Below, one piece after another: positions 5,381-17,998 of a stretch of 28,863 nucleotides of DNA. This DNA is from an uncultured Muribaculaceae bacterium (GTDB lineage Bacteria > Bacillota_I > Bacilli_A > RF39 > UBA660), in assembly GCA_964546695.1 (NCBI GenBank), contig CAZJKS010000002.1:5999-34861 (forward strand), read 5' to 3'. The notes beneath the pieces were generated by a model that worked only from the letters and a program-made list of their open reading frames with translations, was not told the DNA's origin and did not search any database. The first letter of the stretch is position 1; each line of letters begins with the position of its first letter. The position numbers and the translations under genes are program-made.

Positions 5381-5468
5381 GCAAGGATGGCGGAATAGGT
5401 AGACGCGCTACTTTGAGGGGGTAGTAGTTTATATAACTGTGGGAGTTCGAATCTCCTTCCTTGCACCA
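5381..5468 (+). tRNA. tRNA-Leu(GAG)
   Basis: Acceptor stem GCAAGGA/TCCTTGC, D-arm TGGCGGAATAGGTAGACGC, anticodon arm CTACT-TTGAGGG-GGTAG (GAG 5415-5417), long variable arm, GTTCGAATC T-loop, encoded CCA. Confidence 0.97.
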
Positions 5469-14170: not shown

Positions 14171-15505
14171 ATGAAAAAAGTATTGGTGTTTTTGATAGTT
14201 TTATTTGCTAGTATAATGATAGTACCAAATGCTTATGCAGCAGAGGGTGCAGTTGCTAGTTTAGATGGTGTTGAGTATACTAGTTTACAAGATGCTATTG
14301 AAAATGCAAATGGAAAAACTGTAACATTACTTTCTGATGTTACTGAGAGTATAACTATTTTTGAAGGTATAACAGTTACTTTGGATTTGGGTAGTTATAC
14401 AATTACGAATGAAGAAGGGTATGATACGATTACTAATTATGGTAATCTTACGATTGTTGGAAGTGGGACTGTTGATAATGTTTCTCATGGAAAAGCAGCT
14501 TTAAAAAATGAAGAAAAAGGTGTAGTTGTCTTAGAGTCAGGTACTTATATAAGAAGTAAGGAGACTGGTGTTAGTGCTGATGTGTCTGGTGGTAATTCAT
14601 TTTATACTATTCAAAACTATGGATATATGACAATTAAAGATGGTGTTCAAGTTTTAAATAATGGTAGTTTTTCAAGCTTACTAGAAAATGGTTTTTATAA
14701 TGGTAGTGAAAAGCAGTATGATGGTACTCCAACTTTAATTATTGAAGGAGGATACTTTAGTGGTGGTTTAAACACAATTAAAAATGATGACTGGGGTGTT
14801 TTAGTAATTAATGGAGGAACATTTACTAATGTTGCTCAAGCAGCAGTTCTTAATTGGAACAAAGCTACTATTAATGGTGGTACTTTTGAGTCTTCAAACT
14901 ATGTTATTTTAAATGGCAAATTAGATGATGTTATGGATACTGGAGAGTTAATAATTACTGGTGGTACATTTATTGCAGGAAGTGGTGATATTATTGGTTC
15001 CATGCGAGGCAATGATGATGATTTAGTTAATGTATTTGTTCAAGGTGGTATTTTTAATAAAGAAGTTAGTGCTAATCTATTAGATATTAACGATGATGAG
15101 GCTTTATTACTAAATGCTAATGGATATTATGAAATTGCTAAAAAACAGGCTGATTATAGTCAAGTTTATGAATTAATAGAAGAAGCTGATAATATTGATA
15201 AGTCATTATATACTGATGAGAGTGTAGAGGTATTAGAAGATGCTATTGCTAGTGTTGATTATAGTAAGAATGGCTTAGAACAGAGTGATGTTGATGCTAT
15301 GGCTTTAAATATTAAATTAGCAATAGATAGTTTAGTTAAAAAAGTAGAGGTAGTAGACCTAACAACTTCTCTAGAGGCTACTGTAGAGACTAATCCTGAG
15401 ACAAGTGATCCTATTTTACTTATAGTACTTGTTTTATTAGTAAGTAGTGTTGGTATTGTATTTACTGGTAGAGAATTATGTAATTTTCTATCTAAAAATA
15501 TTTGA
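14171..15505 (+). CDS. Surface protein: signal peptide, GGTF-repeat beta-helix-like region, FIVAR-like helical domain, sortase-like NPETSD motif plus TM
   Basis: MKKVLVFL...AYA signal; repeated IxGGxF motifs; ADYSQVYELIEEA...YTDESVEVLEDAIAS...QSDVDAMA FIVAR pattern; NPETSD then a hydrophobic helix; GAGGTG SD favours ATG 14171. Confidence 0.75.
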   Translation: MKKVLVFLIVLFASIMIVPNAYAAEGAVASLDGVEYTSLQDAIENANGKTVTLLSDVTESITIFEGITVTLDLGSYTITNEEGYDTITNYGNLTIVGSGTVDNVSHGKAALKNEEKGVVVLESGTYIRSKETGVSADVSGGNSFYTIQNYGYMTIKDGVQVLNNGSFSSLLENGFYNGSEKQYDGTPTLIIEGGYFSGGLNTIKNDDWGVLVINGGTFTNVAQAAVLNWNKATINGGTFESSNYVILNGKLDDVMDTGELIITGGTFIAGSGDIIGSMRGNDDDLVNVFVQGGIFNKEVSANLLDINDDEALLLNANGYYEIAKKQADYSQVYELIEEADNIDKSLYTDESVEVLEDAIASVDYSKNGLEQSDVDAMALNIKLAIDSLVKKVEVVDLTTSLEATVETNPETSDPILLIVLVLLVSSVGIVFTGRELCNFLSKNI

Positions 15506-15529
15506 CAACTTAATAATTTGTAGTAAAAT
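15502..15529 (+). promoter_or_regulatory. Sigma-A promoter of the T-box/orphan/thrS transcript
   Basis: TTGACA (15502-15507, containing the upstream TGA stop), 16 nt, TAAAAT (15524-15529). Confidence 0.65.
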
Positions 15530-15544
15530 AATATTTATAAATAC

Positions 15545-15745
15545 GTTATTAGTTAGGGACTTGATGAGAGAATACTTTTAATCTTAGAGACTTAACGGTT
15601 GGTGAAAGTTAAGAAAAGCTCTTTTGTTACTACCTTAATGAGTAGAGTTATGCAAAGTAATTCCGGTTAAAGCCGTTATTTTAATTAAGTTAAAAAAGGA
15701 TGGTATCGTGTAGTGTATGGCACTCCTATATATCATCCTTTTTAT
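15545..15745 (+). ncRNA. T-box riboswitch (Thr, specifier ACU)
   Basis: Stem I with AGAGA bulge and GGTTGGTGAAA loop (CTTAAC/GTTAAG, CTTTT/AAAAG, GAGAG/CTCTT helices); ACT-A at 15629-15632; AGTA stem II; CCGTTA box; antiterminator AGGA-TGGTATC-GTG...CAC-TCCT. Confidence 0.92.
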
Positions 15746-15768
15746 TATATAAAGATAGGAGAAAATAT

Positions 15769-16260
15769 ATGGGAAAGAAAAAAGCTTATTATAAGAGTTC
15801 AAAATCATGTGAAAATATTCATGTATTTATGGAAAGTTGGTATGGTGTTAAAAGTCATCGTCGTAAAAGAACAAGATTTCATCATAATGATATGCCGCTA
15901 TATTTTATCAATAGGGGAGTTACACCTCCTAAAGCTGTTTCATTAGATGTAGCATCTAAAGATAATTCTGATAAATATATTTATGTTAGGGATGATGATA
16001 ATAATATTAGATGTTATGGTAATAGTTTAGCACTTAATAAAGAAGATATCTTAAGAGGTAATTTAAGTGTTAAAGAAAGAGATAAAAAAAGAAGAGAGAT
16101 ACTTAATGATTTAGGTTATGGTTATGATGAGATAACTGGAGAAGTAGAATTGCTAGAAGTATTAGAAAATGAAAGATATATTGATGAGTTAGTGCCTACT
16201 GAAAAGGTTAATAGGCAAAAAACTATAAGTAAAAGACATTATTATGGAGGTGGAAGATAA
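15769..16260 (+). CDS. Orphan 163-aa protein between the T-box and thrS
   Basis: AGGAG SD (15757-15761) 7 nt before ATG 15769; host-like codon usage; stop 1 nt before the thrS ATG; no family recognised. Confidence 0.75.
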   Translation: MGKKKAYYKSSKSCENIHVFMESWYGVKSHRRKRTRFHHNDMPLYFINRGVTPPKAVSLDVASKDNSDKYIYVRDDDNNIRCYGNSLALNKEDILRGNLSVKERDKKRREILNDLGYGYDEITGEVELLEVLENERYIDELVPTEKVNRQKTISKRHYYGGGR

Positions 16261-16261
16261 A

Positions 16262-17998
16262 ATGGTAAATATTAAAGAAAGTGAATTGTTAATGCCACTT
16301 AATCATTCTTGTGCTCATTTGTTAGCAGAGGCAGTTAAGAAATTATATCCTGATGCTAAGTTTTGGGTAGGACCTGTAATAGAAGATGGTTTTTATTATG
16401 ATATTGATTTAGGAGATAAGACTCTAACAGATGAAGATTTACCTAAAATAGAAAAAGAGATGAAGAAGATTGCTAAAGGTAATAAAAAAATCATTCGTCA
16501 TGAGTTAACTAGAGAAGAAGCACTTGAGAAATTTAAGGATGATCCTTATAAAATAGATTTAATTAATAATATGCCAGATGATGAAGTAATTACTTGTTAC
16601 ACTCAAGGAGACTTTACTGACCTTTGTCGTGGTCCTCATGTAGATTCAACAAAAGAATTAAGACATTTTAAACTCTTAAGAGTAAGTGGTGCTTATTTTA
16701 AGGGAGACTCTAAAAATAAAATGTTGCAACGTATTTATGGGGTTTGTTACTATAGTGAAGATGATTTGAATAAGCATCTAGAATTCTTAGAGGAAGCGAA
16801 ACGTCGTGATCATAAAAAATTAGGTAAAGAACTAGGTTTATTTATGATTAGCGAATATGGACCAGGTTTTCCTTTCTTTTTACCTAATGGAATGGTTTTA
16901 AGAAATATTTTAGAAAATTTTTGGTATGAAGAACATACTAAAGAAGGATATGAATTTATTAAAACTCCTATTATGTTAAATCAAGAATTATGGGAAAGGT
17001 CTGGTCATTGGGATAATTATAGAGAAAATATGTATACATCTACAATAGATGATAGAACTTTTGCTATTAAACCAATGAATTGTCCAGGGGGTATGTTAGT
17101 ATATAAAAATTCTTTACATTCATATAAAGACTTACCAATAAGATGTGGTGAGTTAGGTCAAGTTCATCGTCATGAAGCAAGTGGAGCTTTAAATGGACTA
17201 TTTAGAGTAAGAACATTTACTCAAGATGATGCTCATATTTTTATGAGAGAAGACCAAATAGAAAGTGAGATAATTAGATTAATTAAATTTATTGATAGAA
17301 TTTATAGTTTATTTAACTTATCTTATGATATAGAATTATCTACAAGGCCAGAAGATAAATTTATAGGTAGTATAGAATCTTGGAACAAATCTGAGGAAAT
17401 TTTACAAAGAGCGTGTAAAGAAGCTGGGCATGATTGTAAGATAAATCCTGGTGATGGGGCTTTTTATGGGCCTAAACTAGATTTTCATATTAAAGATTCC
17501 TTAGGTAGAGTATGGCAATGTGGTACTATTCAATTAGATAATAATTTGCCAGAAAGGTTTGATTTAACGTATATAGATAAAGATGGTTCTAAAAAAAGAC
17601 CTATTATGTTACATCGTGTTATATTTGGTTCTATTGAAAGGTTTATTGGTATATTAATAGAACATTTTGCAGGATTATTTCCTCTATGGTTAAGTCCTCT
17701 TCAAGTAATAGTTATTCCAGTATCTAGTGAATATCAAAATGATTATGCTACTAGAGTATATGAAGAATTAAAGAATAATAATATTAGAGTAGAGTTAGAT
17801 AACCGTAACGAAAAACTAGGCTATAGACTAAGAGAAGCTCAAACTAGAAAGATTAATTATACTTTAATTCTTGGCGATAAAGAAAAGACCGATAATACAA
17901 TTAGTTATAGACGTCATGGTGAAAAAGATACTACAACAGTAAGTATAGATGAATTTATCAAACTATTAAAAGAAGAAATAGATACTAAAAAAATATAA
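16262..17998 (+). CDS. thrS: Threonine--tRNA ligase lacking the N-terminal TGS domain
   Basis: HSCAH and DLCRGPH editing motifs, RDHKKLG, KPMNCPG, HRHEASG, FRVRTFTQDDAHIF, GAFYGPKLD, WQCGTIQLD, HRVIFGSIERF; GGAGGT SD. Confidence 0.98.
   Translation: MVNIKESELLMPLNHSCAHLLAEAVKKLYPDAKFWVGPVIEDGFYYDIDLGDKTLTDEDLPKIEKEMKKIAKGNKKIIRHELTREEALEKFKDDPYKIDLINNMPDDEVITCYTQGDFTDLCRGPHVDSTKELRHFKLLRVSGAYFKGDSKNKMLQRIYGVCYYSEDDLNKHLEFLEEAKRRDHKKLGKELGLFMISEYGPGFPFFLPNGMVLRNILENFWYEEHTKEGYEFIKTPIMLNQELWERSGHWDNYRENMYTSTIDDRTFAIKPMNCPGGMLVYKNSLHSYKDLPIRCGELGQVHRHEASGALNGLFRVRTFTQDDAHIFMREDQIESEIIRLIKFIDRIYSLFNLSYDIELSTRPEDKFIGSIESWNKSEEILQRACKEAGHDCKINPGDGAFYGPKLDFHIKDSLGRVWQCGTIQLDNNLPERFDLTYIDKDGSKKRPIMLHRVIFGSIERFIGILIEHFAGLFPLWLSPLQVIVIPVSSEYQNDYATRVYEELKNNNIRVELDNRNEKLGYRLREAQTRKINYTLILGDKEKTDNTISYRRHGEKDTTTVSIDEFIKLLKEEIDTKKI

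Follow-up and report, generated by a model that had tools for sequence, protein, structure and literature searches.

How does a T-box leader terminate transcription when its only terminator-like helix pairs with the very bulge that should receive the tRNA 3' end? The T-box is the standard example of RNA sensing by RNA, and its switching rule and its dependence on Stem III are both regarded as general. The question is raised by a Thr (ACU) T-box leader at positions 15539-15743 (+) of the window (the whole stretch of DNA analysed, 28,863 nucleotides), located upstream of a 163-aa ORF and thrS. The draft genome measures 1.3 Mb and belongs to an uncultured gut bacterium, a member of the Bacilli that some records list as Tenericutes or Mollicutes. 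The answer favoured here, held with a probability of roughly 0.7, is that the leader is a transcriptional Thr T-box with a rewired platform (class A), in which a downstream strand uses the bulge as a toehold to displace helix A1; that transcription ends here, the sequence of steps and the competition with tRNA are all inferred.

The Rfam T-box model RF00230 aligned with positions 15539-15730 over its full length (model positions 1-219; 51.6 bits, E = 1e-10). This score lies below the gathering score of 93, so that the corresponding membership criterion was not met and standard annotation misses the leader; the low score also counts against the class A explanation. The alignment recovered the Stem I distal motifs AGAGA and GGUUGGUGAAAG (family motif AGAGA / GGUNGNUG) and a conserved purine, A15632, directly after the ACU specifier. 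The original prediction had placed an antiterminator of the form AGGA-UGGUAUC-GUG...CAC-UCCU at 15697-15727, and the base check found all of its elements at these positions. With helix A1, a 7-nt UGGN bulge and helix A2 present, the membership test on the antiterminator was met, and A1 and A2 were 97-100% paired in relatives. The 3' part of the bulge reads AUC, compared with ACC in the consensus. Within the genus, the UGGUAUC bulge occurred in 21 of the 25 distinct class A Thr leaders and UGGUACC in 16/16 canonical ones, and the U of UGGUAUC (versus UGGUACC) pairs with A or G in the terminator strand. Both tRNA-Thr species of the genome (GGU and UGU anticodons) end in ACCA, the match to UGGU. 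The test on the discriminator base was met as well, N of UGGN being complementary to that of the cognate tRNA (Thr, UGGU/ACCA; serS, UGGC/GCCA), as was the test on the target, since the amino-acid gene under the leader, thrS, matches the ACU specifier. As far as sequence alone can tell, the identity of the leader as a Thr T-box is supported.

The features of the leader and of the genes below it are listed in Table 1. The transcript may start just upstream of the T-box, a placement resting on a promoter-like site recognised by consensus match only. Downstream, the stop codon of the 163-aa ORF lies 1 nt upstream of the thrS ATG, and this ORF was therefore considered translationally coupled with thrS and under Thr control. 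The ATG at 16262 is preceded by GGAGGTGG, and the longest ORF begins at 16244. The first ORF differs within the genus, being a homologue starting with MGKKK in some members and an unrelated ORF starting with MNIIELL in others. The threonyl-tRNA synthetase is short (578-584 aa; window 16262-17998) and carries, according to Pfam, the second additional domain, the class II core and the anticodon-binding domain; the N-terminal TGS domain was not found with Pfam. Elsewhere in the window, a long-arm tRNA was detected at 5381-5465 (49 bits with Rfam), which ARAGORN identified on the genome copy as tRNA-Leu(GAG).

Table 1. Features of the Thr T-box leader and its downstream genes, in window coordinates.
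Feature	Position	Strand	Basis
Promoter-like site TTGACA-16-TAAAAT	15502-15529	+	11/12 consensus matches; consensus match alone
T-box Stem I and shortened Stem II region	15539-15662	+	Rfam RF00230 alignment
Specifier codon ACU (Thr)	15629-15631	+	RF00230 alignment position; downstream thrS; tRNA-Thr GGU and UGU in genome
Stem IIA/B and F-box region, CCGGUUAAAGCCGUUA	15663-15678	+	RF00230 alignment
A-rich unstructured linker in the place of Stem III	15679-15696	+	RF00230 alignment; zero folding energy in relatives
Helix A1 5' strand AGGA	15697-15700	+	Base check; in both antiterminator and terminator
T-box bulge UGGUAUC	15701-15707	+	Base check and RF00230 alignment
UGGU, site for the tRNA ACCA end	15701-15704	+	tRNA-Thr 3' end is ACCA
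Helix A2 hairpin, GUG (15708-15710) ... CAC (15721-15723)	15708-15723	+	Folds and covariation; present in both conformations
Helix A1 3' strand UCCU	15724-15727	+	Paired in antiterminator (100% in relatives), bulged out in terminator fold
Terminator 3' strand AUAUCAUCC	15730-15738	+	Pairs with GGAUGGUAU (15698-15706); folds and covariation
U-tract UUUUUAUUAU (U5, 15739-15743)	15739-15748	+	Conserved in every class A and class B orthologue
Shine-Dalgarno AGGAG of the first ORF	15757-15761	+	By eye
163-aa ORF, first gene under the T-box	15769-16260	+	No Pfam or NCBIfam match
thrS, threonine--tRNA ligase	16262-17998	+	TIGR00418, 746 bits

As the original prediction had described, GGAUGGUAU and AUAUCAUCC form 9 bp with one G.U pair directly before U5, and AUCA (15732-15735) faces UGGU in the same register as the tRNA ACCA end. 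The minimum free energy fold of 15685-15770 contained this same helix, extended by an A-run/U-run to 14 bp, the last five A of the linker (15693-15697) being able to pair with the U-tract. In this fold (-20.1 kcal/mol; z = -3.3 versus shuffles), 15693-15706 is paired with 15730-15743 and the small A2 hairpin sits on top. A canonical platform would take the 5' strand of its terminator from the A1 and A2 3' strands; this criterion was not fulfilled, as 15693-15706 comprises the A1 5' strand and the bulge. Either structure needs the A1 5' strand, so antiterminator and terminator cannot form together. When growing transcripts were folded, a weak antiterminator-like state (-4 to -6 kcal/mol; only -2 to -6 kcal/mol for the antiterminator alone) was kept until 15734 and flipped to the terminator once 15736-15738 had been made, consistent with the predicted switch. 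The claim that this is the only terminator-like helix also held within 15400-16300, where a simple scan found no other; that the scan called nothing there is due to its loop limit of 3-8 nt. The terminator 'loop' is 23 nt long including the A2 hairpin, which is atypical for intrinsic terminators and counts against the class A explanation. At the RNA level, only gut metatranscriptome contigs were available, from relatives only and from the four runs examined (6-15% of words shared; no molecule ends): two short contigs ended within the U-tract or immediately past it and two others continued beyond, which does not amount to usable 3'-end evidence. The lack of an experimental or read-based 3' end counts against the class A explanation.

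The conservation of this arrangement was assessed in the 53 genomes of the genus, which supplied 45 orthologous Thr leaders and a paralogue, and two terminator platforms were found. The bulge-pairing terminator (class A) was present in 29/45 orthologous leaders, with GGAUGGUAYC pairing with GRUAUCAUCC ahead of a U-run, and a canonical terminator on an unchanged aptamer (class B) in 16/45, with CACUCCUA pairing with the downstream UAGGAGUG, again followed by a U-run. As these 16 leaders have a canonical terminator and U-tract at the same place, the class A helix fills the functional slot of the terminator. Covariation of the predicted 15698-15706/15730-15738 helix was also borne out: it was 97.3% paired in the 25 distinct orthologous sequences, with compensatory changes at one variable bulge position (U-A 11, U-G 10, C-G 3) and at another (C-G 21, A-U 1, U-A 1). 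No shuffle reached as high a value (0/500), and slid controls were paired at 46-67%. The A1 helix of the antiterminator was invariant across the same 25 sequences. Judged by its covariation, the helix is beyond chance. A weakly supported aptamer tree implied at least three switches between platform types; its well-supported branches force only one, and no claim is therefore made on their direction or number.

The serS T-box of the same genome is wired as the Thr leader is. All of the serS leaders fetched from the genus were class A (30/30), with AAGGAUGGC pairing with GCCAUUCUU before a U-run, and UGGC was usually faced by GCCA, the sequence with which both tRNA-Ser genes end. When Thr and Ser leaders were aligned together, N of UGGN formed U-A in 24 sequences and C-G in 13. 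With U-A for Thr and C-G for Ser, this pair indicates that the terminator strand tracks the nucleotide that reads the discriminator base of the tRNA.

The mechanism proposed for class A is as follows. In the ON state, the antiterminator would consist of A1 (AGGA/UCCU), the 7-nt bulge and A2, with the acceptor end ACCA of uncharged tRNA-Thr paired to UGGU and stacked on A1. In the OFF state, the strand 15730-15738, which begins only 3 nt past the closure of A1, would nucleate on the free bulge as on a toehold, and branch migration through the 4-bp A1 would expel UCCU into a 3' bulge. The resulting helix of 9-14 bp would keep the A2 hairpin unchanged as its cap and place a G-C base against the U-tract, and transcription would end upstream of the 163-aa ORF and thrS. 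Uncharged tRNA bound to UGGU and A1 would leave the toehold occupied. As one and the same tetranucleotide is required by the tRNA end and by the terminator strand, it is proposed that the tRNA blocks the toehold directly, besides stabilising A1. The analysis itself shows that the two helices exclude one another and are conserved with covariation, and it identifies the U-tract, tRNA ends that match, and the gene under control; direct competition between the tRNA and the terminator strand is an inference.

The original prediction had gone further and called the terminator strand an internal mimic of the tRNA end. The register and the match at the N pair stand, and the identity of the sequence does so only in part: among 39 family-wide examples, an exact NCCA opposite UGGN was present in only 7, and the partner was AUCA, weakened by a G.U pair, in 19, so that the 'mimic' is usually weaker than the tRNA, which may reflect tuning or merely a drift towards AT. 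The reverse statement, that the internal strand is never exact NCCA, was rejected on the same 7/39 and on the GCCA of serS leaders.

The inferred competition is the point on which the best-surviving alternative differs. It accepts the same structure with ordinary logic: the tRNA would only stack on and stabilise A1, and the bulge pairing would just lengthen the terminator helix, without real competition for UGGN. This is considered unlikely, yet it has arguments on its side. The presence of the A1 5' strand in both helices already makes them exclusive, and as A1 exclusion alone would suffice for switching, bulge competition is not required by the data. Moreover, the UGGN partner is usually the wobble-weakened AUCA rather than NCCA, and class A and canonical platforms have been exchanged among close relatives with the aptamer unaltered. 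It is at odds, however, with the N position, which is never left unpaired and changes in step with the identity of the tRNA, with a helix that spans the whole 7-nt bulge in most members, and with the fact that a bulge occupied by tRNA cannot join the terminator helix.

The position of the U-tract bears on a second alternative, translational or dual control, in which the freed CUCCUAU (15723-15729) would pair with AUAGGAG (15755-15761) and hide the ribosome-binding site as in actinobacteria. The window does contain this perfect 7-nt complement, and UCCU is freed in the OFF fold; nevertheless, 5 of the 7 pairs are expected from the fixed UCCU of any T-box against any AGGAG. The Shine-Dalgarno region varies in relatives (UAAGGAG, UGGGGAAG, GGUGGGAG) without compensating changes, and sequestration by CUCCUAU was rejected as not conserved there. 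Together with the terminator helix, the pairing would also form a pseudoknot with a short linker. The criterion for a translational T-box was not met, as the U-tract adjoins the helix, and does so as a conserved element in every member, and the Shine-Dalgarno lies 14 nt further, outside the helix. Such control was accordingly given little credence.

The distribution of class A was further inspected with R1, a covariance model of the class A helix built from this genus. In the genome of the window R1 gave three matches, one of which is a T-box unlisted by the RF00230 search at E ≤ 0.01. The third class A T-box of the genome lies at G000:C145:1682-1731 (-) (locus L138; 51.6 bits with R1). Across the order, R1 matched in 123 of 151 genomes and 68 of 86 genera, with up to seven matches per genome, and the positive genomes belonged nearly all to one family of gut Bacilli with genomes of about 1 Mb. 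Among the R1 matches listed, about 150 scored at least 45 bits, and the best 28 loci all folded as class A (28/28), mostly with the canonical UGGUACC bulge. In the 39 family-wide leaders (alignment A3, which was fitted to the model and hence favours the structure), the terminator was 97.7% paired and the antiterminator 100% paired, both with the same 5' strand. At one locus (L134, G086:C1:27432-27479) a three-way covariation was observed, the 5' strand being GGAAUGG instead of AGGAUGG, with A1 3' UUCC and terminator CAUUCU to match. Overall, covariation extended over more than 60 distinct sequences from about 30 genera. On these comparative data, class A is real and conserved; where the original prediction had a single case, it is the standard design of a bacterial family and goes along with the loss of Stem III. 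A chance or relic complementarity, with the real terminator elsewhere or a T-box in decay, to which the Rfam score below the gathering cut-off and the AT-rich sequence could point, is very improbable in view of this covariation, of the absence of another terminator in the simple scan of 15400-16300, and of intact aptamer motifs with thrS downstream.

Outside the family, R1 gave weak matches only, and class A was nearly absent in the genomes sampled; as R1 was built from this genus, its misses in distant lineages are weak evidence of absence. True class A was found there in two leaders (L124 and L126; family f11, genus g119; AGGAUGGU/ACCAUUCU) and a class-A-like arrangement in one (L121, family f8), the rest having plain or canonical terminators, so the rewiring is not strictly confined to the family of the window. 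As a baseline, 20 other families were sampled through their 29 best Rfam T-boxes: at least 15 were clearly canonical, two were of the enclosing type described below, 29/29 had Stem III, and none was class A (0/29). For other families the geometry was assigned with an automatic classifier whose output was noisy, as it took up U-runs lying immediately behind A1; counts are restricted to clear cases.

Stem III was the second element in which the leader departs from the model. The criterion for its presence, with purines at its flanks, in the discriminator was not fulfilled: its place is taken by an 18-nt A-rich linker without a conserved hairpin, with 1 nt against the 19-nt insert of the RF00230 model. 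Likewise, the linker between the F-box and A1 was about 20 nt long (median 20), A-rich and of zero folding energy (dG 0) in 27/27 family members. According to a 2020 review (PMC7583486), the terminator draws its 5' strand from the A1 and A2 3' strands, and the discriminator cannot bind tRNA without Stem III. Class A follows neither the terminator rule nor the Stem III requirement of that review. The absence of an element reported as required for tRNA binding (PMC7583486) also counts against the class A explanation, as the way in which the tRNA end is held is left unexplained.

Stem III is present in six further T-boxes of this genome (L002-L007; G000 contigs C35, C31, C41, C104, C3 and C78), together with 'enclosing' terminators. 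In these, the segment ahead of the U-tract is paired to the linker and to either the 3' strand or the whole of Stem III, which is thereby unfolded; A1, the bulge and A2 remain undisturbed above. Between paralogues, Stem III covaries with the partner that lies downstream of it (AACUAU/AUAGUU versus AUCUAU/AUAGAU). Enclosing terminators were also observed in another family of the class (L243 and L249; family f14). In both enclosing and class A leaders the terminator hairpin wraps A2 and its 3' strand pairs 5' of the 3' strand of the antiterminator; however, enclosing terminators keep A1 and a free bulge and compete with Stem III, whereas in class A Stem III is missing, A1 is dissolved and the bulge is paired. 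Class A looks like the Stem III-less counterpart of enclosing terminators, with the invading strand landing on the bulge instead.

Compared with the canonical class I T-boxes (Bacillus subtilis tyrS and glyQS; RF00230), class A shares the Stem I specifier and elbow-binding motifs, the F-box region, the 7-nt UGGN bulge, the A1/A2 antiterminator, a U-tract terminator, an aminoacyl-tRNA synthetase target and the match between N and the discriminator base. It differs in the origin of the terminator 5' strand, which is the A1 5' strand and bulge instead of the A1/A2 3' strands (PMC7583486), and in that A2 persists in both states, the A1 3' strand is bulged out and Stem III is missing. The translational T-boxes of Actinobacteria (ileS of Mycobacterium and Nocardia) share the discriminator idea and an alternative helix set against A1/A2, but they hide the Shine-Dalgarno with the 3' strand of the antiterminator and keep Stem III, whereas class A has a U-tract terminator with the ribosome-binding site outside the helix. 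Toehold strand displacement is known from the ZTP and purine riboswitches, where an invading strand made later in transcription starts to pair at a single-stranded stretch and then ousts a helix that the ligand stabilises. In class A, by comparison, the toehold would be the Watson-Crick site of the ligand itself, and the ligand is a tRNA.

The original prediction had set the geometry against a single canonical rule and did not recognise it as described. The rule is the only one given in the 2020 review (PMC7583486), and no description of a bulge-pairing T-box terminator was found in the literature searched, which was limited to open-access papers. The database TBDB locates terminators by means of RNALfold and has no classes for their geometry.

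Class A thus represents a natural, widespread and covariation-supported design that breaks both T-box rules, and the canonical orthologous leaders of sister species provide ready-made controls. Three questions become testable: the gating of a terminator by a tRNA end through toehold occupancy, a discriminator without Stem III, and the exchange of platforms on a fixed aptamer. The compact 47-nt platforms could also serve as parts for engineered tRNA-responsive switches. For the family as a whole, a tentative proposal, put at somewhat less than an even chance, is that most T-boxes are run without Stem III, the OFF strand taking UGGN and A1 by a toehold, so that switching would be competitive rather than allosteric and the G.U weakening of AUCA would tune it toward the tRNA. 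As the leaders fall under the Rfam cut-off, T-box regulons are under-annotated in this abundant gut lineage.
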